Part shown: piece by piece, positions 46,382 through 63,957 of the stretch | Layout: every line of letters begins with the position of its first letter | Position numbering within the stretch: the first letter of the stretch is position 1 | NCBI RefSeq assembly: GCF_035998705.1 | Contig: NZ_DASYHH010000021.1 | Location: 141,036 to 205,035, forward strand | Reading direction: 5' to 3' | Origin: Shinella sp. | GTDB lineage: Bacteria > Pseudomonadota > Alphaproteobacteria > Rhizobiales > Rhizobiaceae | DNA length: 64,000 bases | The notes under the pieces: generated by a model | What the model was told of the DNA's origin: nothing | Database searches by the model: none | What the model saw: only the letters and a program-made list of their open reading frames with translations | Made by a program: the position numbers and the translations under genes

Positions 46382-47590
46382 TCAGGCGCCGGCCTTACGG
46401 TAGAGCGCGGCAAGCTGGGTGCGCGACGAGGGCAATTCCGGCACCACGACCATCATGGTGATATGCCCGCGCTTGAAGGCGTTGAGGAACGGCTCGTAGT
46501 TCTGGAAGGCGACGCAGCCGTGCGAGCCCTTCTGGTTGCGCAGGAGGTTGGTATGCGTCAAGAGGCCCGTGCGGTTCTTCGGGTCACGCCCGTCGATCGA
46601 GGTCATGCGGATCGCCTCTACGCCGTGGAAGCGCCGCTCGCGCATCTTCAGGCGGTAGATGCCGGCCGGCGTCGGCCCGTTCATCTTGACATGCTCGTAG
46701 CGCGGATTGTCGCGCATCTTGCCGATGCCGGAATGGGCGCGAAGCTTCGTGCCGTCGGGCATGTAGACCGTTGCGTTGGAGACGTCGTAGATCGCGACCC
46801 GCGTGCCCTTGCCGAGCCAGCCCGTGCCATTGCTGCTGCCGCCCTTGCCCTTGAACAGGTCGCCGAACAGCGAGCGCTCGGGCTTGGCGTAGGCGATCTC
46901 TTCCTTGTCCTTGTCCTTGTCCTTCGCCGTTTCGCGCTTGTTGCGCGCGACCGGCTTTTCTTCCACCACCGGCTTTTCGATGGCGACCGTCTCGAGCGCG
47001 GGCTTGGCTTCCGGCAGCGGGATCTGGCTGAGGATGTTGTCCTCTTCCGTCTGCGGCTTCTGCATGACGAGGCCGAAGGGCTGGATGTCCTTGCGCGCAG
47101 ACGTGTCTTCGACGAGCGCGGTCACCATGGCCGGCTGGCCGGTGATCGCCTTTTCCTGTTCGACGGAGCGCTCGGCGCGGGCATAGGCCGCCTCGATCAA
47201 CGCCGCCTTCGCCTTTTCACGCTTCACGGCGGAGGCGAGCTGGACCGAGATCTTGCGCTGGTGCGCCACCTGGATCGCCTCGGCGGTCAGCTGCTTCTGG
47301 CGAAGCTCGCTTTCCGAGGGCTGCGAGAGCCGCGAGAATTTCGCGATCTTCACCACCCGGTCGGCGGCCTTTTCTTTTGCCGCGGTCTTGATGTGGAGCG
47401 TGCCGGCAATGGCCTTCTTGCCGTCGGAAAGCGACGTTGCCGCCTCGTGCATGGCGCCGAGCGTCGAGACGACGGCCCAGGCGGACCCGGCGATGACGCC
47501 GCAGGCAAGCAATGTGCTGAGAAGGATGCCCGCGGAACGGCCCCGACGGGATTTCGACGCGGAACGCGCGGAACTGTACACAGACGCCAT
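46382..47590 (-). CDS. Membrane-anchored DUF2778 (Tlde1, L,D-transpeptidase-like fold) protein
   Basis: N-terminal TM; long charged linker; AHSGIG, GPTPAGIY, HTNLLRNQKGSHGCV. Confidence 0.82.
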   Translation of the reverse strand: MASVYSSARSASKSRRGRSAGILLSTLLACGVIAGSAWAVVSTLGAMHEAATSLSDGKKAIAGTLHIKTAAKEKAADRVVKIAKFSRLSQPSESELRQKQLTAEAIQVAHQRKISVQLASAVKREKAKAALIEAAYARAERSVEQEKAITGQPAMVTALVEDTSARKDIQPFGLVMQKPQTEEDNILSQIPLPEAKPALETVAIEKPVVEEKPVARNKRETAKDKDKDKEEIAYAKPERSLFGDLFKGKGGSSNGTGWLGKGTRVAIYDVSNATVYMPDGTKLRAHSGIGKMRDNPRYEHVKMNGPTPAGIYRLKMRERRFHGVEAIRMTSIDGRDPKNRTGLLTHTNLLRNQKGSHGCVAFQNYEPFLNAFKRGHITMMVVVPELPSSRTQLAALYRKAGA

Positions 47591-47843
47591 GATACTCGTT
47601 ACCCGATACTCGTTACTCGACGCGGCCGCGGAACAGACAGTCCGAGGGCCTTTACGCTGGCGGCGGGCATCGGGACCACGCGTCCCGGAACTCTGCCGAA
47701 CGAGCAAAGAATGACGAAATATGGTAAGCAATTCCTTTACGGCGCCTCACGTTTTTGAAGGAATCCGCCGGGGTGTCCTCACCGCCCGGCAAGGCTGCCT
47801 CTCACGAGAATGCGGCGATGGCGTGTCCTTACCGTCCGTATCG

Positions 47844-52644: not shown

Positions 52645-53445
52645 GTGATGGCCATGCTGACAGTGCTTGCCTTGCTGATGAGCCTGACGGCCGGCGCCGA
52701 AATCGCCGCCGCCTCCGACCAGGAGGTCGACGTGGAGCTGGTGCTTGCGGTCGACGTCTCCGGCTCGATGGACCTGGAGGAAGCGCAGGTGCAGCGCGCC
52801 GGCTATGTCGATGCGCTCAGACATCCCGATTTCGTCAATGCCGTGCGCGACGGCCTGACCGGCCGCATCGCCATCAGCTATTTCGAATGGGCCGGCACGA
52901 TCCGCGACAGTTCCCACCTGCCCTGGCAGATCATCTCCGGGCCGGAAGACGCCAACGCCTTTGCAGCCCAACTGGAGGCCCGCCCGATCGCCACGCGCCG
53001 CGGCACGTCGATCTCCGGCGCCATCGTCTACGGCGCGAAACTCTTCGATGGAAACGGCTATTCCGGCATGCGCCGCGTCATCGATGTCTCCGGCGACGGC
53101 CCGAACAATTTCGGACCGCCCGTGACGCCGGCCCGCGATGCCGCCACCGCGCTCGGCATTATCATCAACGGCCTCGCCATCATGATCCGCCCCTCGGCCG
53201 CCTACGGCTCGCTCGACGACTATTATTCGAACTGCGTCATCGGCGGCCCGGGCGCCTTCGTGCTGCCGGTGCAGGAGCCGGAGGATTTCGCCATCGCCAT
53301 CCGCCGCAAGCTGATCCTCGAAGTCAGCGGCGCCGAGCCGCCCGCCCGCGTGATCCGCGCCGCCGGCCAGAGCGCCGACTGCATGATCGGCGAGAAACTC
53401 AGGCCCAGCTACATGGAACGCTACTACCCGGAACTCGACCGGTAA
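52645..53445 (+). CDS. DUF1194 (vWA-like) secreted protein
   Basis: Signal peptide; LVLAVDVSGS, RRVIDVSGDGPNN, CVIGGPGAF. Confidence 0.9.
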   Translation: MMAMLTVLALLMSLTAGAEIAAASDQEVDVELVLAVDVSGSMDLEEAQVQRAGYVDALRHPDFVNAVRDGLTGRIAISYFEWAGTIRDSSHLPWQIISGPEDANAFAAQLEARPIATRRGTSISGAIVYGAKLFDGNGYSGMRRVIDVSGDGPNNFGPPVTPARDAATALGIIINGLAIMIRPSAAYGSLDDYYSNCVIGGPGAFVLPVQEPEDFAIAIRRKLILEVSGAEPPARVIRAAGQSADCMIGEKLRPSYMERYYPELDR

Positions 53446-53597: not shown

Positions 53598-53611
53598 TGA
53601 ATGAACGTTCA
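53598..53611. promoter_or_regulatory. BetI-like operator site 1 (TGAATGAACGTTCA)
   Basis: Palindromic; 20 bp upstream of the Rieske start; matches sites at 56423 and 62265. Confidence 0.75.
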
Positions 53612-53630: not shown

Positions 53631-54830
53631 ATGAACGAGATGATCCGCGATATCAACGTTCCGAACGACTGGGACAGGAGCGGACTTCCGGGCTGGTGTT
53701 ATCACAGCCCCGCCCTTCTCGAGCTGGAGAAGCAGCATGTTTTCCGCGAGCACTGGCAGATCGCCTGCCACGTCTCCGACATTCCCGAGCCCGGCAACTA
53801 CCTTGCCATGGACGTCGTCGGCGAGCGCGCGCTCATCCTGCGCGGGCAGGACGGCACCGTGCGCGCCTTCCACAATATCTGCCGCCACCGCGGCTCGCGC
53901 CTCGTCGCCGACGAGACGGGCACGTGCCGCAACGCGCTTGTCTGTCCCTTCCACGGCTGGGTCTACAATCTCGACGGCACCTTGCGCGGCGCCGCGCGCC
54001 CCCGCAGTTTCCCGCCGCTCGACAAGGACGAGTTCGCGCTGAAATCGCTCGAATGCGAGATCTGGATGGGTTTCGTCTTCATCCGCTTCGCGCCCGGCCC
54101 GCAGCCCTCCGTCGCCGAGCTGATGAAGCCCTTCGAGGACGAACTTTCGCATTACCGTTCCGAGGAGATGGTGCCCACCGGCGGTATCTGGACGCAGGAA
54201 AGTCCGGTCAACTGGAAGTCCGTGCGCGACGTCGACAACGAGGGCTACCATGTCGCCATGGCCCACCCGGCCCTTCAGGACCTCTATGGCTCGACCTATT
54301 ACGACGAGCCCTTCGTCGACGGCCTCTGCCGGTCCTTCGCCACCTACAATCCCCATGCCGGCCGGCGCTGGAGCGTGCGCAACTACGTCAGGATATCGCA
54401 GGACAACCCGCGGCTTCCCGAACGGCTGCGCAAGGCCTGGATCTATTTCGGCCTGTTCCCGAACTGCGTCATCGCGGTGACGCCGGAGACCATGCAGTTC
54501 TACCAGGAATTCCCCATCGGCGTCGGCAGGACGTTGCTGCGCGGCGGCATCTACCGCTACCGCGACGAGGACCGCGCCCAGCGCCTCGCCCGCTACCTCG
54601 CCTACCGCATCGATCGCGACACGCAGTCCGAGGACGTGCAGCTCACCGTCTGGTCGAACGAGGCGATGACCTCGAACGCCTTTGCCGGCTTCTACCTCTC
54701 CGACCTCGAATATGGCGTGCGCACCCACCACGACCACATTCGCAAGGTGCTGCCGGTGGTGACGCTGAAGGAGGCGCCGGAAGAGACGGCGATGGCGGAG
54801 GTCAATGCCGGCCTCGCCGAAAGCCGCTAA
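53631..54830 (+). CDS. Rieske non-heme iron oxygenase alpha subunit (choline monooxygenase/GbcA/CntA-like group)
   Basis: CRHRG..CPFHGW Rieske ligands; EGYHVAMAH and a C-terminal ED for mononuclear Fe; AAGGGGAG RBS before 53631. Confidence 0.92.
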   Translation: MNEMIRDINVPNDWDRSGLPGWCYHSPALLELEKQHVFREHWQIACHVSDIPEPGNYLAMDVVGERALILRGQDGTVRAFHNICRHRGSRLVADETGTCRNALVCPFHGWVYNLDGTLRGAARPRSFPPLDKDEFALKSLECEIWMGFVFIRFAPGPQPSVAELMKPFEDELSHYRSEEMVPTGGIWTQESPVNWKSVRDVDNEGYHVAMAHPALQDLYGSTYYDEPFVDGLCRSFATYNPHAGRRWSVRNYVRISQDNPRLPERLRKAWIYFGLFPNCVIAVTPETMQFYQEFPIGVGRTLLRGGIYRYRDEDRAQRLARYLAYRIDRDTQSEDVQLTVWSNEAMTSNAFAGFYLSDLEYGVRTHHDHIRKVLPVVTLKEAPEETAMAEVNAGLAESR

Positions 54831-54921: not shown

Positions 54922-56358
54922 TCAGCCCTTCCAGAGCCCTTCGCGGGTCAGGTCGTCCATGGTGAGTTCGATGCCGCGGCGCAGGATCGAAGCCATGTCG
55001 TCGATCTGCGCTGTCGAGATGGTGAGCGGCGGCGACATCACGCACATGCTGATGAGCGGGCGCACCAGAAGGCCGAGTTCCTGGCAATGCCGGTCGATGC
55101 GTTTTCCCACTTCGAGATCGAGCGTCAGCGGATTGTTGCTGACCCGGTCGGCGACGCATTCGACGCAGGCCATGAGGCCGAGACCGCGCACTTCGCCGAC
55201 CAGCGGCAGGTCTTCCAGCGCCTTCAGGCTCTTCTGGAAATGATCCGACACCGCCCGTGCATGCGCCAAAAGGCCGCCTTCCAGGATGTCGAGGTTCTTC
55301 AGCGCCACGGCGCAGCCGACCGGATGGCTGGAATAGGTGAGCCCGTGCGCAAACATCGCCTCCGAATGGTTCGAACGGCGCAACTCCTCGAACAGCCGGC
55401 CTGCGATCATCACGCCGCCGAGCGGGAAATAACCGGAGGTGACGCCCTTGGCGAAGGTGATCATGTCCGGCTCGATATCGAAAACATCCTTCGACGCGAA
55501 GACATGGCCGAGGCGCCCGAAGGCCGTCACTACCTCGTCGGCGATGAAGAGGATGTCGTTGGCCCGGCAAAGCGCGTGCATGCGCTTGAGGTATCCCGCG
55601 GGCGGCACGATGACGCCGCCAGAGGCCATGACGGGCTCGGCAATGAAGGCGCCGATAGTTTCGGCCCCCTTCTCTTCTATGACCTGCCGGAATTCCTCAA
55701 CGAGGAAGTCGCAGAACGCCTCTTCCGTAATGCCTTCCGGCCGGCGGAACGGGTCCGGGCAGGAGAGTTTGACGACGAGATCCGACGCGCTGTCCATCCA
55801 GTCGTGGTCGCGCGGCCGGCCGTTGAGCGAGGCGGAGAGATAGGTCGAACCGTGATAGCCGCCCTGCCGGGAGACGATCAGCTTCTTCTCCGGCCGCCCC
55901 TTCACATTGTTGGCGAACTGCATGAAGCGCAGCGCCGTCTCCACCGCCGAGGAACCGCCCGTCGTGTAGAAAACGTGGTCGACGCCGTCGGGCGCGTGCT
56001 CGGCGAGTCGGGCAGAGAGCACAGCAGAGGGTGTGTTCGTCGTGTACCAGGGCGAATTGTAGGATAGCTCCATGGCCTGCGACGCCATGACGTCGGCCAA
56101 TTCCTTGTTGCGGTGCCCGGCATTGACGCACCACATGCCGGCAGGCCCGTCGATCAGCTTTCTGCCGCTGGCATCCGTCACATAGATGCCCTCGCCCGAC
56201 TCGATTCGCCCGCGTGCCTCGGCACCGATCGAGCCCGACATCGGCCAAGGCTGCACCAGGTGGCGCTCGGCAAGGCGGGTGATCTCGTCGCCCGCCGCCT
56301 CGCCAGCACGCAGGTCCTCGTTCGCCGTCTTCGGAATTGCCGCCATGTCCCGCTCCAT
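54922..56358 (-). CDS. Class III (omega-amine) PLP aminotransferase
   Basis: GMWCVNAGH, GGSSAVETA, YHGST, IADEVVTAFGR, TFAKGVTSGYFPLG. Confidence 0.93.
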   Translation of the reverse strand: MERDMAAIPKTANEDLRAGEAAGDEITRLAERHLVQPWPMSGSIGAEARGRIESGEGIYVTDASGRKLIDGPAGMWCVNAGHRNKELADVMASQAMELSYNSPWYTTNTPSAVLSARLAEHAPDGVDHVFYTTGGSSAVETALRFMQFANNVKGRPEKKLIVSRQGGYHGSTYLSASLNGRPRDHDWMDSASDLVVKLSCPDPFRRPEGITEEAFCDFLVEEFRQVIEEKGAETIGAFIAEPVMASGGVIVPPAGYLKRMHALCRANDILFIADEVVTAFGRLGHVFASKDVFDIEPDMITFAKGVTSGYFPLGGVMIAGRLFEELRRSNHSEAMFAHGLTYSSHPVGCAVALKNLDILEGGLLAHARAVSDHFQKSLKALEDLPLVGEVRGLGLMACVECVADRVSNNPLTLDLEVGKRIDRHCQELGLLVRPLISMCVMSPPLTISTAQIDDMASILRRGIELTMDDLTREGLWKG

Positions 56359-56422: not shown

Positions 56423-56436
56423 TGAATGTTCGTTCA
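56423..56436. promoter_or_regulatory. BetI-like operator site 2 (TGAATGTTCGTTCA, flanked by AT..ATCAAT)
   Basis: In the divergent aminotransferase/ABC promoter region. Confidence 0.78.
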
Positions 56437-56604
56437 ATCAATATTGCAGAACTGGGGCTTGATTTCAACGGGGATTTGAGCGCATGTTGTCTTCAGGGAA
56501 CACGAGAGTGCCGGATACGGAAACTCCTCAAGCCGAAAAGGCGCACATATGGGAATGGGAAGCCTCACGCTCTATGAATGTTGCCGCGAGCGGAGCCCTG
56601 CCCG

Positions 56605-57522
56605 ATGACGGCGGCGGCGTTCGACAGGATCGCTGACACGCCCGCCCCGGCAAGGCGCCGGGCCTGGACACGCAGCGAAGAGGCCCGCGGCCTCGCCATG
56701 ATCTCGCCGACCTTCCTCTATGCGCTGGCGCTGCTTTTCTTGCCCGTCCTCATCGTCATCGCCTACAGTTTCTGGACCCAGAACTATCTCGACATCGACC
56801 GCACCTTCACGCTGGAAAACTACCGCCAGGCGCTGACCGAACCGATCTACCGCGACCTCTTCATCCGCTCGCTGTGGATCTCGCTGACGGTCAGCGTCGT
56901 CACCGTCGTCTTCTCTTACCCCATCGCCTGGTTCATCTCCTTCCATGGCGGGGTGCACAAAAACCTCTGGCTCTTCCTGATCACCGTACCCTGCTGGACG
57001 AGCTATCTGCTGCGCGTCATGTCCTGGAAGGTCATCCTCGGCTATGGCGGCGTCATGAACACCGGCCTTATCTCGATGGGCCTCATCGACAAGCCGGTGA
57101 CCTCGCTGCTCTACAATTCCAACGCCGTCGTCATCACGCTGGTGCACAGCTGGGCCGCCTTCGCCATCTTGCCGATCTACGTCTCGCTGCAGAAGATCGA
57201 CCGCACCTATATCGAGGCGGCACGCGATCTCGGCGACAGTCGGCTCCGCGCCTTCTTCCGCATCACCCTGCCGCTGTCGCTGCCGGGCGTCGTCTCCGCC
57301 TTCCTGATCGTGATGATACCGACCGTCGGCGACTACGTGACGCCGCGCCTCGTCGGCGGCAAGGACGGCGTGATGATCGCGACCGCCATCCAGGCGCAGT
57401 TCGGCAAGGGCGCGAACTGGCCGCTGGGTGCCGCCCTCTCCGTAACGACCATGATCCTCGTGTCGCTGACGGCCGCAGCCGTCGTGCTGGCGCTGAAATT
57501 CACCGTGCGGAGGATCAAATGA
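56605..57522 (+). CDS. ABC transporter permease (PotB-like)
   Basis: TM helices; EAARDLG EAA loop; NWPLGAALS. Confidence 0.92.
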   Translation: MTAAAFDRIADTPAPARRRAWTRSEEARGLAMISPTFLYALALLFLPVLIVIAYSFWTQNYLDIDRTFTLENYRQALTEPIYRDLFIRSLWISLTVSVVTVVFSYPIAWFISFHGGVHKNLWLFLITVPCWTSYLLRVMSWKVILGYGGVMNTGLISMGLIDKPVTSLLYNSNAVVITLVHSWAAFAILPIYVSLQKIDRTYIEAARDLGDSRLRAFFRITLPLSLPGVVSAFLIVMIPTVGDYVTPRLVGGKDGVMIATAIQAQFGKGANWPLGAALSVTTMILVSLTAAAVVLALKFTVRRIK

Positions 57523-58343
57523 CAATCCTCACGCAACGCTTGCGTTTCATTCCGTGGCTGCCGGTCTATGTCGCGGTCTATTTCCTCTTCCTCTACCTGC
57601 CGATCCTGCTGCTGCCGGTCTTCTCCTTCAACAATGCGGCGACGACGACCTTCCCGCTCGCCGGCTTCACCACCAAATGGTACGCCTCGCTCGCCGGCAA
57701 TTCGGTGATGATGGAAGCGGCCTGGAACAGTCTGGTCGTCGGCATCTCGGTCGCGCTGCTCTCGACGGTGCTCGGCATCTGCGCGGCCCGCGCCATCACG
57801 CGATACCGCTTTCGCGGCCAGAGGGCGGCGGCCGGCCTCATCATGGCGCCGCTCTTCCTGCCGGAAATCATCGTCGCGGTCTCGCTCCTGATGATCGTGC
57901 TCGCGATGGGCATCGAGCTTTCGCTCGTCACCATCATCCTCGGCCAGACCGTGTTCTGCGTGCCCTATGCCATGTCGGTGCTCGTCTCCGGCTTCGAGGG
58001 CTTCGACCGCAGCCTGGAAGAAGCCTCCTACGATCTCGGCGAAACCGCCATCGGCACCTTCCGGCGCGTCACGCTGCCGGTGGTCGCACCGGCCATCGTC
58101 TCCAGCCTGCTCGTTACCTTCACCATCTCGCTCGACGAGTTCATCCTCGCCTTCTTCCTGTCCGGCACCGCGCCGACGCTGCCGGTCTATATCTGGGGCC
58201 AGCTGCGTTTCGCCGCCAAGCTGCCCGGCGTGCTGGCGCTCGGCACGATCATGCTCGTCGCCTCGATCCTCATGCTCACCCTTGCCGAAGTCCTGCGCCG
58301 CCGTGCCGAACGCCGCACGCAATTGGCGCTCATCCTGCCCTAG
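57519..58343 (+). CDS. ABC transporter permease (PotC-like)
   Basis: FLYLPILLL..FSFN, GFTTKWY, EEASYDLG, FTISLDEF. Confidence 0.92.
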   Translation: MTILTQRLRFIPWLPVYVAVYFLFLYLPILLLPVFSFNNAATTTFPLAGFTTKWYASLAGNSVMMEAAWNSLVVGISVALLSTVLGICAARAITRYRFRGQRAAAGLIMAPLFLPEIIVAVSLLMIVLAMGIELSLVTIILGQTVFCVPYAMSVLVSGFEGFDRSLEEASYDLGETAIGTFRRVTLPVVAPAIVSSLLVTFTISLDEFILAFFLSGTAPTLPVYIWGQLRFAAKLPGVLALGTIMLVASILMLTLAEVLRRRAERRTQLALILP

Positions 58344-58353
58344 GAGGCGCGCA

Positions 58354-59463
58354 ATGCCCGACCGTCCCATGATCGAGATCCAGAACGTCTCGAAGTTCTA
58401 CGGCATCTACAAGGCGCTCGACGACGTCTCGCTGACCATCGGCGAAGGTGAGTTCTTCTCGCTGCTCGGCCCCTCCGGCTGCGGCAAGACCACGCTGCTG
58501 CGCTCGATTGCCGGCTTCGAGACGCCGACGGCCGGCGAAATCTTCATCGACGGCGCGCCGTCGCTCGCCCTGCCGCCAAACAAGCGGCCGACCAACATGG
58601 TGTTCCAGAACTACGCCATCTTCCCGCATCTCGACGTCGCCGAAAACGTCGCCTACGGCCTGAAGCGGCTGAAACTCTCGCCGGAAGACGAGAAAAAACG
58701 TGTCGGCGACGCGCTCGACCAGGTCCGCCTCTCGGGCTTCGGCCAACGCAAGGCGCACGAATTGTCCGGCGGCCAGCGCCAGCGCGTGGCGCTCGCCCGC
58801 GCCCTCGTCATGCGTCCGAAAGTATTGCTGCTCGACGAGCCGCTCTCAGCCCTCGACAAGAAGCTGCGCGAGGAAATGCAGGTGGAGCTGCGCACGCTGC
58901 AAAAGGCCGTCGGCATCACCTTCATCCTCGTCACGCACGACCAGTACGAGGCGCTGGCGCTCTCCGACCGCATCGCCGTGATGTTCGGCGGCCGCATCGC
59001 CCAGATCGCGACACCGAAGGAAATCTACCAGCGCCCGCGCACGCGAAAAGTCGCCGATTTCCTCGGCGGCATGAACTTTTTGAAGGCGAAGGTGCTCGGC
59101 GAACAGGGCAATGCCGTCTCGGTTGACGCCGCCCGCTTCGGCGCGGTCAACCTCGACAAGCCGCACGGTTTTAGCGCCACAAACGGCCACGTCACCGTCG
59201 GCATCCGCCCGGAACGCCTGCGCCTCCTGTGGGACGACGACCGCGCCCAGCACGAACTCGCCGGCCGCATTCAGAACCGCGCCTATTTCGGCGAAGTCAC
59301 CCATCTCACCGTCGGCGTCGACGGGCTGGAGCAGCCGCTCTCCATGGTCGAGACCAACGATCACGGCGCAGACGACCTGCCGATCGGTGCAGAAATCCGC
59401 CTCGCCTATGATCCAGATGCGTTCGTGCTTTTGGCAGAAGACGAAGCGGTGCGACGGGTTTGA
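58354..59463 (+). CDS. ABC transporter ATP-binding protein (PotA-like)
   Basis: GPSGCGKT, VFQNYAIFPH, LSGGQRQR, LLDEPLSALD, TOBE-like tail. Confidence 0.95.
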   Translation: MPDRPMIEIQNVSKFYGIYKALDDVSLTIGEGEFFSLLGPSGCGKTTLLRSIAGFETPTAGEIFIDGAPSLALPPNKRPTNMVFQNYAIFPHLDVAENVAYGLKRLKLSPEDEKKRVGDALDQVRLSGFGQRKAHELSGGQRQRVALARALVMRPKVLLLDEPLSALDKKLREEMQVELRTLQKAVGITFILVTHDQYEALALSDRIAVMFGGRIAQIATPKEIYQRPRTRKVADFLGGMNFLKAKVLGEQGNAVSVDAARFGAVNLDKPHGFSATNGHVTVGIRPERLRLLWDDDRAQHELAGRIQNRAYFGEVTHLTVGVDGLEQPLSMVETNDHGADDLPIGAEIRLAYDPDAFVLLAEDEAVRRV

Positions 59464-59523
59464 GCGATAGCGAATAGAAGGTAGCGCCTAGAAACTATTC
59501 GCTACTCCCTATTCGCTATTCGC
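59464..59523. repeat. Inverted arrays of the heptamer CTATTCG
   Basis: Right arm CTATTCG-CTACTCC-CTATTCG-CTATTCG (59495-59522); left arm GCGATAG-CGAATAG-AAGGTAG (59464-59484) on the opposite strand. Confidence 0.7.
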
Positions 59524-59531
59524 CCCTCTTC

Positions 59532-60614
59532 TCAATACCCCGATTTGATCTTCTCGAATTCGGCGATCATCTTCTGGCGCAGCTCCGTCGGGATCGGCGC
59601 CTGGAAGAGCGTGTTGGCGACGAAGGAGTCGACATCCGCATAGCCCTTGTCGGCAAGGATCTTCGGATCGACCGCGGCCATGCCCTTGGCGTTGGAATGG
59701 CCGTAACCCCAGTTCTCCACCATATAGGCGGCTACGGCCGGATCGGTGACGGCGTTGAGGTAGTCATAGGCGAGATCGGGGCTGCCTTCGCCGTCCTTCA
59801 GCCGTGAATAGCCGCAGACCCAGGTCGAAAGCCCTTCCTTCGTATCCTTCTTGATCACCACCGGCTGGCCCTCGGCTTGCAGCGTCGTCGCCGTCTCGTT
59901 CCACGCCCAGGCAAGATCGACCTCGCCGCTGGCCATCGCCTGGCTGAGATCCGTATTGTCCGTCCAATAGAGCCGTACGTTCTGGTGCACCGCGCGCAGG
60001 AAGGCCGACGCCTCCTGGAATTGCGCATCCGTCATCGCCGTCAGGTCCTTGAGGCCGATGGCGAGGCCCGCCAGCGCATAGGCGTCGTCGACATTGTCGC
60101 CGATCGACACGCGGTCCTTGAATTTCGGATCAGCAAAGGCCTTCAGCGAGGCGACTTCCTCGGGCTTCACTGTATCCGTACGGTAGGTCAGCACCGTATT
60201 GCCCCATTCGAAGGGAAGGAACCAGGCCGTGCCGTCCTCGGCCGTCATGAGGTTTTTCATGCCCTTGAAGGCCGGCAATATGTCGTTCCATGCCGTGAGT
60301 TTCGACGTGTCGAGAGGCTCCAGCAGCCCGGCCTCGCGCCATTTCACGATACTCTGCGCGCAAGGATGCGCGATATCGGCCTTGAAGCCGGAACGCAGCT
60401 TCTGGAAGGCCTCTTCCTCATCGCCGAAGAACGAGAAATCCGGCGAACCACCATGTTTTTCCACATAGGCGGGGTGGAAGGCCGGGTCCTCGTAGCCGGA
60501 CCAGTCGAAAACAGTGAGCGTATCGGCGGCGACGGCGGGAAGCGCAGTTGTAAGGGCGAGGAGAGCGGCCAATGCCGCCATTGTGGTGCGCTTGGCCCTG
60601 TTTGCAGTCTTCAT
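59532..60614 (-). CDS. Extracellular solute-binding protein (PotD/PotF-like)
   Basis: Signal peptide; LTVFDWSGY, PFEWGNT, MASGEVDLAWAW, GLSTWVCG. Confidence 0.9.
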   Translation of the reverse strand: MKTANRAKRTTMAALAALLALTTALPAVAADTLTVFDWSGYEDPAFHPAYVEKHGGSPDFSFFGDEEEAFQKLRSGFKADIAHPCAQSIVKWREAGLLEPLDTSKLTAWNDILPAFKGMKNLMTAEDGTAWFLPFEWGNTVLTYRTDTVKPEEVASLKAFADPKFKDRVSIGDNVDDAYALAGLAIGLKDLTAMTDAQFQEASAFLRAVHQNVRLYWTDNTDLSQAMASGEVDLAWAWNETATTLQAEGQPVVIKKDTKEGLSTWVCGYSRLKDGEGSPDLAYDYLNAVTDPAVAAYMVENWGYGHSNAKGMAAVDPKILADKGYADVDSFVANTLFQAPIPTELRQKMIAEFEKIKSGY

Positions 60615-60643: not shown

Positions 60644-61309
60644 CTATTGTGGTTGTGGTCCTTGAAGCGTGAGATGTTTCGGGAAGGCGATCACGACGAA
60701 GGCGATTGCCGCCTCCAGCGCCTTTTCCCGCGTCGTGCCGTCGCCCATCATCAGGCGCAGCCACAGGCCTTCCAGCATGGCGCAGAGCGCCAGCGCCATC
60801 GGCTCCGGCTCATAGCCATAGCCGCCCTCGGCCCTCAGCTCGGTGCAAAGCGAGATCACCGTTTCCTGGTATTTGACGTCACGCGCGCCGCAGAGCGCCT
60901 GATAGGTCGGCCGCGACTTCGCCTCGCCCCAGAACGCGCACCAGGCGGCAAGCTTGCGCTTGGTGCAGATCTTGCGGTCGAAATCCGCGTGCACGATGGC
61001 CCACAGGCGGCTGGCAACGCTTGGGCCGGCCTTTTCCAGCGCGGCATTCCAATGGTCGCCATACTCTTCCGACATATATTGCAGCGTCGCGATGAGCAGG
61101 TTTTCCTTGCTCTCGAAATGGAAGTTGACGATGCCGCGGGAAAGGCCGGCGCCGTCAGCCACGTCGGCGAGCGTTGTGTCGGAATAACCGCGCTTGGCGA
61201 GCGAATCGATCGTCGCCTCGATGAGCTGCTGCCGCCTCGTTTCCTTGGAAGCCTTGCGTCCCCGCTTCTCGCCGTCGCCCGAGCCCTGTTCAGCCCCGCC
61301 TGCCCGCAT
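60644..61309 (-). CDS. TetR family regulator, BetI-like
   Basis: RRQQLIEATIDSLAKRG, GLSRGIVNFHFESKENLL, WCAFWGEA, LEGLWL. Confidence 0.88.
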   Translation of the reverse strand: MRAGGAEQGSGDGEKRGRKASKETRRQQLIEATIDSLAKRGYSDTTLADVADGAGLSRGIVNFHFESKENLLIATLQYMSEEYGDHWNAALEKAGPSVASRLWAIVHADFDRKICTKRKLAAWCAFWGEAKSRPTYQALCGARDVKYQETVISLCTELRAEGGYGYEPEPMALALCAMLEGLWLRLMMGDGTTREKALEAAIAFVVIAFPKHLTLQGPQPQ

Positions 61310-61350
61310 CTTCACCGTCACCTTGCCTCTGGGATTTCTGAGCACCACGG

Positions 61351-62169
61351 TCACGGGTTCACTCCCGCGGCCGGCTTGCTGCCGCGCAGATGAGTGGGAC
61401 AATGCTCTCCGCTGTCAAGAACCTTCTGCATGGCCGTCCAGGTGCGGATATTCTTCGCGACATGGGCTTCGCCCACGGCCTCCACCGCCGCTGCGTAGAG
61501 CGGCCCCTTCAGGCGTTCAAGCTCACCGCGCGCCACCTCGCGATACCAGGCATTGCGGCTTTCGGCCGTCGCATCGATGAAGCCCGCCGCCGCCATCGCC
61601 GCAAGATAGCGGCGCGGCGAGGCCATGCCGAAATGCAGCCCCTCGGCGGCAATATAGTCGGTCATGTCCACGCTCGGCTCACCGTCATGGCCGATCAGCC
61701 AGTCGGAGGCGGCAAACCTGCCGCCGGGTTTCAGCACGCGGAAAAGCTCGGCGAAGAGGGCCTCCTTGTCCGGCACGTGGATCATCGCATCCTTGGAAAA
61801 GACGATGTCGAACTCTCCGTCGTCGAACGGCAGGCGGCCGGGTGGGCTAGACACGAACCGCGCGACGGCGGAGAGCGCTGCGGCATCAGCCGCCGCCCTC
61901 GCCCGCTTGATGACCGGCTGCTCCACGTCGTAGCCGACGATCTGCGCCGGCCCGTAGGTCTTTGCCAGATGCAAGGTGATGCCGCCGGCGCCGCAACCGA
62001 AATCGAGAACGCGTTTGCCCTTGAGGTCGACACCCGCAATCACGCGATCGACTTCCTCTGGTCCACCGGGAGACAGGTATCCTTCTCCCCAAAGGACGCC
62101 GAGGAAGCGGATCGCCGCCTCGTCATATTCCGGCGCCCCTGCCGCATCGCCTTCAACCACTGCCGTCAT
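61351..62169 (-). CDS. Class I SAM-dependent methyltransferase, phosphoethanolamine N-methyltransferase-like
   Basis: [45 protein letters not shown]. Confidence 0.82.
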
Positions 62170-62264
62170 GGCATTCCCTTGTCGTGGTCCCTGATACCGG
62201 CTGACCGGCGCTCGTCCATGGGTCGAAATTCTAGCGCATAATCAGGCGATTGCAAGATACTTGC

Positions 62265-62278
62265 TGAATGATCATTCA
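62265..62278. promoter_or_regulatory. BetI-like operator site 3 (TGAATGATCATTCA; perfect 16-bp palindrome 62264-62279)
   Basis: In the divergent methyltransferase/flavoprotein promoter region. Confidence 0.78.
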
Positions 62279-62337: not shown

Positions 62338-63957
62338 ATGCAAAAGTACGATGCCCTGATCGTTGGCGGCGGCCATAATGGGCTGGTCACGGCCTGCTAT
62401 TTGCAGCGCTCCGGCCTCAACGTTCTCGTCGTGGAAAAGAATGGGTGGGTCGGCGGCGCGGCGACAAGCCGGGAGCTCACCCCCGGCTTCCTCTATTCCA
62501 ACTGCTCCTACGTCTGCTCCCTCTTCCGCCCGGAGATCATGCGCGACCTCGAACTGCCGAAACACGGCCTCCAGGTCATCGCCTACGAGGGCGGCGCGGT
62601 CTTCACGCGCGACGGCGACTACCTCGCCTCCTACCGCGACCACGACAGCCATCGCCGTGAATTCGCCCGCTACTCCAGGCGCGACGCCGAGGCCTATGAG
62701 CGCTACGCCCGCGACGTCACCCGCCAGTGCCGCTTCATCCAGCCGCTTCTGATGCGCACCGCACCCGACCCGTTCAGTTTTCGCCCGCGCGACATTTCCG
62801 AGCTGCTCTATCTCGCCAAAAAATTCGGGGAGTTCAGCCCGCACGAAATGGCCGAGACGCTGCGCTTCTGGACCATGTCGATCTCCGACTATCTCGACGA
62901 ATATTTCGAAACCGACGTCATCAAGGCCTATCTGGCGCTGTCCGGCATCATCGGCACCGCGCTCGGCCCCATGTCGCCGGGCACGGCCTATGTGCTGCTC
63001 CATCACTATATGGGCGAAGTCGACGGCTCGGTCGGCGCCTGGGGTTATGCCCGCGGCGGCATGGGCGCGGTGACGCAGGCGCTCGCCCGTTCCTTCGAAT
63101 CGGTCGGCGGCACCATCCGCACCGATGCCGAGGTCTCCAAGATCTTGACCCGTGGCGGGCGCACGACCGGCGTCGTGCTCGCCAACGGCGACGAGGTGCG
63201 CGCCGATCTCGTCGTCTCCAATGCCGACGTGAACCGCACCTTCCTGAAGCTCGTCGACGAGGAATCGCTTCCGGGCGACTTCGTCCACCGGGTAAAACAC
63301 TTCAAGATGCGCGGCTCGTCGGGCAAGGTGAACATCGCGCTCGACAGCCTGCCGGAATTCCCGGCGCTGCCGGAAGGCTCCTCCTGCATGCGCGGCGACA
63401 TGCATTTCACCGATTCCATCGAGCGCATGGAACGCGCCTATGACGACTGGAAGGATGGCCGCTGGTCGGCCGATCCCTTCCTCGACATGGTCATCCCGAC
63501 GACGCTCGACCCGACCATGGCCTCGCCCGGCAAACATTTCATGAGCTGTTTCGTGCAATATTGCCCGCCGAAGGTGGAGGGCCGCGACTGGACGGATGCC
63601 GACCGCGACGCTTTCGCCGAAACCGTCATCAGCCAGATCGCCAGCTATTCGCCGGGTTTTCGCGAGCGCATCGTCCATATGGAGGTGCGCACGCCGCGCG
63701 AAATCGAGAACGAGGTGGGCCTCACGGAAGGCAACATCTTTCAAGGTGAACTCACCTTCGACCAGCTTCTCTTCAACCGGCCGGTGCCGGGTTACGCCCA
63801 GTACCGCAGCCCCATCGCCGGCCTCTACATGTGCGGCTCCTCCACCCATCCGGGCGGCGGGGTGATGGGCGCGCCCGGGCGCAACGCCGCCGCCGAAATC
63901 CTGCGCGACCTGAAGCGTACCCCCGAACAGATGAGCAAAGCCCATGACGTCATTTGA
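62338..63957 (+). CDS. Phytoene dehydrogenase-like (PYROXD2-type) FAD oxidoreductase
   Basis: IVGGGHNG, YARGGMG, GNIFQG, YMCGSSTHPGGGVMGAPGRNAA. Confidence 0.9.
   Translation: MQKYDALIVGGGHNGLVTACYLQRSGLNVLVVEKNGWVGGAATSRELTPGFLYSNCSYVCSLFRPEIMRDLELPKHGLQVIAYEGGAVFTRDGDYLASYRDHDSHRREFARYSRRDAEAYERYARDVTRQCRFIQPLLMRTAPDPFSFRPRDISELLYLAKKFGEFSPHEMAETLRFWTMSISDYLDEYFETDVIKAYLALSGIIGTALGPMSPGTAYVLLHHYMGEVDGSVGAWGYARGGMGAVTQALARSFESVGGTIRTDAEVSKILTRGGRTTGVVLANGDEVRADLVVSNADVNRTFLKLVDEESLPGDFVHRVKHFKMRGSSGKVNIALDSLPEFPALPEGSSCMRGDMHFTDSIERMERAYDDWKDGRWSADPFLDMVIPTTLDPTMASPGKHFMSCFVQYCPPKVEGRDWTDADRDAFAETVISQIASYSPGFRERIVHMEVRTPREIENEVGLTEGNIFQGELTFDQLLFNRPVPGYAQYRSPIAGLYMCGSSTHPGGGVMGAPGRNAAAEILRDLKRTPEQMSKAHDVI

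Follow-up and report, generated by a model that had tools for sequence, protein, structure and literature searches.

Here, we analysed a methyltransferase gene on the reverse strand (positions 61351..62169) of a 64,000-nt stretch of Shinella sp. DNA (NCBI RefSeq assembly GCF_035998705.1, contig NZ_DASYHH010000021.1, positions 141,036 to 205,035), hereafter called the window. The gene encodes P0002 (hereafter MT), a 272-aa S-adenosylmethionine (SAM)-dependent methyltransferase with the fold of the phosphoethanolamine methyltransferases (PMTs, also abbreviated PEAMTs). It is the first gene of an operon shared with a BetI-type TetR repressor and a periplasmic substrate-binding protein (SBP). Judged by its alignments, MT represents a distinct bacterial family within the PMT fold. 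We regard it as an even call that MT N-methylates a non-phosphorylated amine, using the PMT architecture with a rebuilt pocket, and that it makes an inducer for, or funnels substrates into, the regulon in which it is encoded. Our literature searches found no paper on this bacterial methyltransferase family or on its gene cluster.

Results

Searched as a single sequence against solved structures, MT matched the MT2 domains of Arabidopsis PMT2 and PMT1 best (E 1e-35 and 4e-33, respectively). When a family profile of 50 homologous sequences was searched against the solved structures, 11 PMT sequences of plant, Plasmodium and nematode origin ranked first and were all aligned end to end, with E-values of 5e-65 for the Arabidopsis enzyme (5wp5), 6e-44 for PfPMT (3uj6) and 9e-41 for nematode PMT-2. 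The first non-PMT methyltransferases appeared at E 1e-36, and the next solved relatives after the PMTs include the O- and C-methyltransferases AtmM, RebM and TleD. The AlphaFold2 model of MT reached a pLDDT of 95.2 and a pTM of 0.91, and in a Foldseek comparison with the PDB the matches listed down to rank 19 were exclusively PMT chains (query-normalised TM 0.81-0.85, rmsd 1.9-3.1 Å). The full-length architecture of the PMTs, with an N-terminal lid motif and a C-terminal cap, is present in MT, and PMTs are its nearest relatives. The resemblance of MT to PEAMTs is thus real and specific, far beyond chance. The original prediction, made from the DNA letters alone, had pointed out a PEAMT-like motif ahead of SAM motif I. 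This 10-residue motif occupies residues 27-36, N-terminal to motif I (54-63), and the kinship it hinted at was borne out, with PMTs closest both by profile (E 5e-65 to 1e-41) and by fold. A grouping with UbiE or tocopherol types, which would have spoken against that kinship, was not found, and PMTs are clearly the closest characterised relatives.

The two ends of the protein carried little of this signal when searched alone against the PDB: the C-terminal 123 aa matched a PMT at a mere E 0.58, and the N-terminal 50 aa retrieved designed armadillo repeats only. A search for longer MT homologues recovered fusion proteins and no plant PEAMTs. Pfam returned generic class I methyltransferase domains only, covering a class I SAM core in which motif I is present (PF08241, PF13649 and PF13847 at E 1e-22), and no NCBIfam equivalog cut-off was reached by MT. 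Four more specific assignments were considered and rejected, namely sarcosine/dimethylglycine N-methyltransferase (NF041675, 59 bits vs a cut-off of 550), the C-methyltransferase UbiE/MenG (TIGR01934, 49 bits vs 158, with residues 50-154 only aligned), the arsenite methyltransferase ArsM (NF008823, 73 bits vs 263) and the phospholipid N-methyltransferase PmtA (8ys9, E 1e-7 over residues 52-153 only; 56 bits by profile). Databases name members of the family 'UbiE', 'class I SAM-dependent methyltransferase' or, by similarity, 'phosphoethanolamine N-methyltransferase'. The first and the last of these names are probably wrong for this family.

The acceptor pocket was compared with that of PfPMT, in which the catalytic dyad consists of Tyr19 and His132, Tyr19, Tyr27, Tyr160, Tyr175 and Tyr181 encircle the phosphobase, and Arg179 and Lys247 provide electrostatic contacts (PMC6705855). 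Residues were mapped by the alignment of the family profile to 3uj6, which pairs profile positions 7-261 with chain residues 15-265; a position in P0002 equals the profile position plus 4. The SAM site is kept and the catalytic set of the PMTs is complete in MT, as Tyr19, Asp128 and His132 correspond to Y15, D127 and H131. From the phosphate-binding set (Arg179, Lys247, Tyr27, Tyr160, Tyr175 and Tyr181), only Tyr175 is retained, as Y172, while Tyr27 is replaced by L23, Tyr160 by W157, Arg179 by E176, Tyr181 by F180 and Lys247 by M247. In the alignment with Arabidopsis PMT2, Y254, Y386, R404 and Y406 face L23, W157, E176 and L178, which supports E176 but pairs L178, not F180, with the equivalent of Tyr181. 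These residues were followed in 90 genome-derived MT homologues of 40-85% identity, from loci titled Alphaproteobacteria, Actinomycetota, Chloroflexota, Bacteroidota and Gammaproteobacteria. The signature Y15/L23/D127/H131/W157/Y172/E176/F180/W244/M247 is near-invariant among them: L23, W157 and E176 are conserved in 90/90 homologues, and Y15, H131 and D127 each in 89/90. No compensating family-specific conserved basic residue was found among the aligned homologues. Since the catalytic residues are kept and the phosphate ligands are replaced, we infer that MT performs the chemistry of the PMTs, amine N-methylation, on an acceptor other than a phosphobase. The distal group of this acceptor would face a carboxylate in an aromatic and hydrophobic pocket, a setting that suits a second ammonium or a hydroxyl group.

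MT is an intact gene. Its ATG is preceded by an AAGGGA ribosome-binding site, and its GC3 of 0.77 is in line with local genes. The next gene on the reverse strand (60644..61354) encodes a BetI paralogue of ~236 aa (PF13977, PF00440), which probably starts at a GTG codon at 61354; this codon overlaps with the MT stop in the sequence GTGA and lies behind a GGGAG ribosome-binding site. The last gene (59532..60614, reverse strand) encodes a PotD/PotF-type SBP with a signal peptide, and its ATG at 60614 lies ~30 nt past the TetR stop behind GGAAGGAG. The overlapping start of TetR and the closely spaced start of the SBP thus make MT, TetR and SBP a single operon. The local TetR protein scored 121 bits against TIGR03384 (cut-off 201) and 115 against NF001978 (cut-off 118), and a true BetI is encoded elsewhere in the same genome (240 bits).

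A perfect palindrome, TGAATGATCATTCA (62265..62278), lies in the gap between MT and the divergent flavoprotein gene, upstream of both at distances of 96 nt from the start of MT and 60 nt from that of the flavoprotein gene, and is the presumed TetR operator. Further copies of this presumed operator occur in the divergent transaminase/potB intergenic region (TGAATGTTCGTTCA, 56423..56436) and just upstream of the gene for a Rieske oxygenase (TGAATGAACGTTCA, 53598..53611). The 14-bp palindrome TGAATGNNCRTTCA is present exactly 3 times in the window, vs 0.34 expected by chance, and the relaxed pattern TGAAYGNNCRTTCA has 4 sites in the 6.44-Mb genome, only 1 of them outside the cluster. In many related loci of several genera, the palindrome is positionally conserved ~100 bp upstream of MT, and the positions of the sites are maintained across many genera. 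Co-regulation of MT with the Rieske oxygenase, as originally proposed, is well supported by these sites, as the palindrome is common to both promoters. The Rieske protein is of the CntA/GbcA/Stc2 type. The fourth relaxed site (TGAACGGCCGTTCA; G000 contig C19, 51406-51419, or L154 1501-1514) is flanked by the 3' end of a Zn-dehydrogenase gene and the start of a PHB depolymerase gene, and probably has nothing to do with the regulon.

The cluster is syntenic along its whole length in ~45 genomes of Rhizobiaceae and Phyllobacteriaceae, including Shinella, Mycoplana, Ensifer, Rhizobium, Pararhizobium, Mesorhizobium, Hoeflea, Nitratireductor and other genera, and in an even sample of Pseudomonadota the MT family was found in 10/401 genomes, all of them Alphaproteobacteria. 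In a second alphaproteobacterial family, MTs of 47-55% identity stand beside genes for TetR, PotABC, transaminase, Rieske, GcvT and flavoprotein homologues, and some of these loci add a DMGDH-like DAO-GcvT fusion, an OYE/TMADH-like flavoprotein and a sulfatase. A wider scan retrieved family members, 57-69% identical to the P0273 MT domain, from Acidimicrobiaceae, Ilumatobacteraceae, Chloroflexota, metagenome-assembled genomes (MAGs) of Flavobacteriaceae, Rhodospirillales and Kiloniellales. About half of the wider-scan loci carry the same cluster genes, among them loci of Acidimicrobiaceae, Rhodospirillales and other MAGs.

The demethylation hardware around MT appears interchangeable. At the related alphaproteobacterial locus L097 (357-4719 and 8105-10189), the CrtI-like pair is swapped for a DMGDH-like DAO-GcvT fusion and an OYE/pyridine-nucleotide-disulfide flavoprotein (TMADH/DgcA-like), and a sulfatase-family gene (PF00884) is added.

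Two kinds of gene fusion involve MT. An MT-TetR fusion of 498-523 aa (e.g. P0290) is known from 16 sequences of independent origin (NCBI MAGs, Tara, Logan and JGI), and its TetR part is orthologous and 50% identical to the local TetR. At L033, a stop codon separates MT from TetR. In Acidimicrobiaceae, MT carries an N-terminally fused flavin amine oxidase of LSD/polyamine-oxidase type; the fusion gene lies inside a GcvT-flavoprotein operon, in a cluster of the same type. P0126, an ABC ATPase joined to a partial MT, was set aside as it looks like an assembly or gene-calling chimera. An Acidimicrobiaceae MAG holds a 945-aa open frame with MT at its C-terminus (L106 239-3076); the ~690 residues ahead of MT have no Pfam match, and the frame represents a third type of fusion or else an over-extended open reading frame.

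Close orthologues of the first flavoprotein are found in genomes without MT; no conclusion drawn here relies on the unpublished genome G383. In genome G084 (L148), the cluster is complete with MT cleanly gone and the flavoprotein and TetR genes adjoining, and in G116 (L147 15059-15412) MT is cut to a C-terminal remnant (residues 151-268) in an otherwise intact cluster; it is also absent from two related clusters of other families, L149 and L150. As MT is deleted or decayed in some otherwise intact clusters, it is accessory to the cluster. Its dN/dS lies at 0.14-0.23 (neighbours 0.05-0.25), and no other cluster gene exceeds it in dN and dN/dS apart from PotA and PotB in 2/4 comparisons. MT is under purifying selection yet dispensable. 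Compared with Shinella lacus (L007), nucleotide identity falls to 70-85% over 61500-62200 with flanks at ~95%, and the dS of MT is 0.58 vs 0.15-0.34 for its neighbours, which suggests that the MT allele was replaced by recombination.

The remaining cluster genes point to uptake and breakdown of amines. The Rieske non-haem-iron oxygenase alpha subunit (53631..54830, forward strand) belongs to the quaternary-amine group of CntA, GbcA and Stc2; its nearest solved relatives are the carnitine monooxygenase CntA (1.5e-33) and the stachydrine demethylase Stc2, and GbcA is its best NCBIfam match. Its open reading frame opens at 53601 with the first ATG within the operator palindrome, and the in-frame ATG at 53631 behind a GGGGAG ribosome-binding site is the likelier start, putting the operator in the leader. 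A class III omega-aminotransferase (54922..56358, reverse strand; NF005447) has 3i5t as closest solved relative (5e-133), followed by GABA, putrescine and polyamine transaminases. The permeases and ATPase of a polyamine-type ABC importer are encoded on the forward strand at 56578..59463 (PotB 56578-57522, PotC ~57519-58343, PotA ~58357-59463), and the SBP groups with PotD and PotF. On the other side of MT, a CrtI/PYROXD2-like FAD oxidoreductase (62338..63957, forward strand) opens an operon whose further genes, located past the window end, encode a paralogous flavoprotein, a GcvT-family folate-binding protein and an 85-aa protein. The domain content of the flavoprotein pair and the GcvT-family protein suggests folate-linked oxidative N-demethylation. 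Taken as a whole, the locus looks like one in which a cationic amine is imported, its methyl groups are stripped and the resulting primary amine is transaminated, with MT as the odd member. That a methyl-adding enzyme sits oddly beside a methyl-oxidising one in a purely catabolic locus had been remarked on before; with the flavoproteins and GcvT just past the window end, this oddity is real.

Neither an ethanolamine/choline kinase nor a phosphatase or cytidylyltransferase was found among the ~13 cluster genes or in the syntenic loci; the rest of the genome was not searched. Kinase genes beside MT in two loci outside the cluster context were considered as a hint at a phosphobase. One of them, a PRK-family gene, follows a his operon and its position is uninformative about MT; the other is an APH-family gene in L127. 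Two genes upstream of the cluster, encoding a Tlde1-domain protein (449 aa, 46382-47731) and a DUF1194 protein (266 aa, 52645-53445), are apparently not part of it. Alignment with Shinella lacus covers the whole cluster except the short convergent potA/SBP spacer (59460-59531), with an identity of 48% in block 59401-59500.

Discussion

What could be the use of an enzyme that adds methyl groups in a regulon devoted to their removal? Our favoured explanation, to which we give an even chance, is that MT is an N-methyltransferase of a non-phosphorylated amine with an inducer-making or funnelling role. The acceptor would be a small amine with a cationic or hydrogen-bond-donor far end, either a diamine/polyamine-type compound or a free amino-alcohol. 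Four features make us slightly favour the former: an importer of the PotD type, a fusion partner of the polyamine-oxidase type, the omega-transaminase and the Glu in place of the phosphate-binding Arg. MT would raise under-methylated congeners of the regulon's substrate to the quaternary state, which the BetI-like sensor and the CntA/GbcA-like oxygenase would recognise, and in doing so it would widen the range of compounds that the regulon senses and consumes. We suggest such a role because MT heads the operon that encodes the regulator, is translationally coupled to the repressor or fused with it, and is optional for the pathway. The original prediction had offered either a plant-like choline/betaine synthesis branch or methylation of an imported amine; the second of these options survives, and the first is not supported.

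Several observations weigh against this explanation. Its main weakness is that methylating an amine which co-induced enzymes demethylate looks futile and costs SAM. Furthermore, about half of the other-phyla loci place MT in unrelated contexts with no recurrent partner, e.g. after a his operon, and the function of the family therefore cannot depend on this cluster. MT is also the least conserved cluster protein (81-85% identity within Shinella vs 85-97%). Finally, the proposed pocket derives from alignment to liganded PMT structures, and TetR is a putative binder of the palindrome and of a quaternary amine.

A more specific and far-reaching version is that MT defines a new class of specificity within the PMT fold and N-methylates a diamine/polyamine or a free amino-alcohol, with a product that acts as the effector of the coupled or fused BetI-like repressor. 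This product would induce an undescribed, widely transferred methylated-polyamine-type pathway with the Rieske oxygenase, PYROXD2-like flavoproteins with GcvT and the omega-transaminase. We put this version forward tentatively, as a possibility.

Alternatively, MT might be anabolic or serve salvage, re-methylating a free primary amine (ethanolamine to choline, or a diamine to a betaine-type osmolyte) to yield an osmoprotectant or a precursor for phosphatidylcholine synthase; the demethylation module would then be the turnover arm of this pool. PMT chemistry permits three successive methylations, the pocket fits a non-phosphorylated base, the regulator is BetI-like, the related locus L097 carries the sulfatase-family gene, and half of the family resides outside catabolic clusters. 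We nevertheless consider this role unlikely: the operator held in common with the degradative genes would make synthesis and breakdown simultaneous, MT is lost from otherwise intact clusters, and no biosynthetic partner genes are conserved beside it.

That MT is a true phosphoethanolamine or phosphobase N-methyltransferase, making phosphocholine for a plant-like choline/betaine or a phosphatidylcholine branch, appears very unlikely to us, even though its nearest characterised relatives are all PMTs by sequence and fold, the catalytic dyad and the Asp are kept, some databases automatically name homologues accordingly, and a BetI-type regulator and a Rieske protein related to choline monooxygenase (CMO) adjoin. 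The ligands that would hold the phosphate are exchanged in nearly all 90 homologues (R179/K247 to Glu/Met and Y27/Y160/Y181 to Leu/Trp/Phe) without a conserved family-specific basic residue as substitute, the C-terminal substrate half alone scarcely detects PMTs, and the cluster has no ethanolamine/choline kinase, phosphatase or cytidylyltransferase. These replacements, the lack of phosphobase partner genes in the cluster and the dispensability of MT for the cluster also speak against the earlier proposal of a plant-like branch via phosphoethanolamine.

Methylation of an atom other than nitrogen is equally hard to sustain. MT might act on a thioether sulfur (3-methylthiopropylamine to DMSP-amine, with the fused amine oxidase or the transaminase acting next) or on a hydroxyl group; the presence of AtmM, RebM and TleD among the next relatives would fit, and the oxidase-MT fusion suggests that the two enzymes act in turn on an omega-amino compound. 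However, the Tyr/His/Asp set that serves amine deprotonation in PMTs is near-invariant, all other cluster enzymes point to N-methyl chemistry, and no sulfur-metabolism gene was seen in the cluster. Least probable of all is that MT is a dispensable passenger drifting to loss with no role in the regulon, as its deletion in G084, the remnant in G116, its high dN and dN/dS (exceeded only by PotA and PotB in 2/4 comparisons) and the signs of allele replacement relative to Shinella lacus are countered by an intact frame with ribosome-binding site and translational coupling, a dN/dS well under 1, catalytic and pocket residues near-invariant across phyla, a linkage to the same cluster type that recurs in distant taxa at 50% identity, and gene fusions of two independent kinds.

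The favoured explanation, N-methylation of a non-phosphorylated amine, would have consequences beyond this locus. A bacterial sister family with the same catalysis and a re-tooled acceptor pocket would show how the pocket sets specificity, and a new natural methylation reaction would probably also emerge. The MT family marks an uncharacterised methylated-amine regulon with conserved synteny in several phyla, from soil rhizobia to many uncultured MAG lineages, in which the paired PYROXD2-like flavoproteins and GcvT are the presumed demethylase. Once identified, the substrate of MT would open the entire pathway to chemical study, and perhaps also the substrate class of PYROXD2-type proteins. The MT-TetR and amine-oxidase-MT fusions are unusual, and both yield specific testable predictions.

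Relation to known systems

PMTs are considered to belong to plants, nematodes and apicomplexans, and their absence from mammals is part of the reason why they are drug targets. MT resembles the solved PMTs (PfPMT 3uj6; the MT2 domains of Arabidopsis PMT1/2, 5wp4/5wp5; nematode PMT-2, 4ine/4krh) in the lid (F/W)GEGY.S.GG, the Rossmann SAM core, the C-terminal helical cap ending in a beta-strand and the equivalents of Tyr19, His132 and Asp128, with TM-scores of 0.81-0.85. It differs from them by R179E, K247M, Y27L, Y160W and Y181F, and also as a single-domain protein set in an amine-catabolic regulon and fused to TetR or an amine oxidase in some lineages. PmtA and the glycine, sarcosine and dimethylglycine N-methyltransferases (GSMT, SDMT) likewise methylate nitrogen with SAM to produce quaternary ammonium head groups, but the generic SAM core alone aligns with MT (8ys9 35-56 bits, 2o57 39-83 bits; NF041675 at the 59 of 550 bits given above).

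Plants make betaine via PEAMT and then the Rieske-type CMO. In another plant route, putrescine N-methyltransferase and then N-methylputrescine oxidase catalyse the entry steps to pyrrolidine alkaloids; the former derives from spermidine synthase and the latter is a copper enzyme. The sequence of a diamine methyltransferase followed by an amine oxidase is the same logic as that of the amine-oxidase-MT fusion and the transaminase neighbour. The plant enzymes share no homology with MT, and the parallel is one of logic only.

For the coupling to a repressor, the nearest models are BetI, the choline-responsive TetR repressor, and the enzyme-coupled repressors BirA and PutA, of which BirA makes the effector of its own repressor function. 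MT is coupled to a BetI paralogue, likened to BetI by its sequence in a genome that encodes a separate true BetI, and in one lineage enzyme and repressor form one polypeptide. To our knowledge, no methyltransferase-TetR enzyme fusion has been described among the known systems of this kind.

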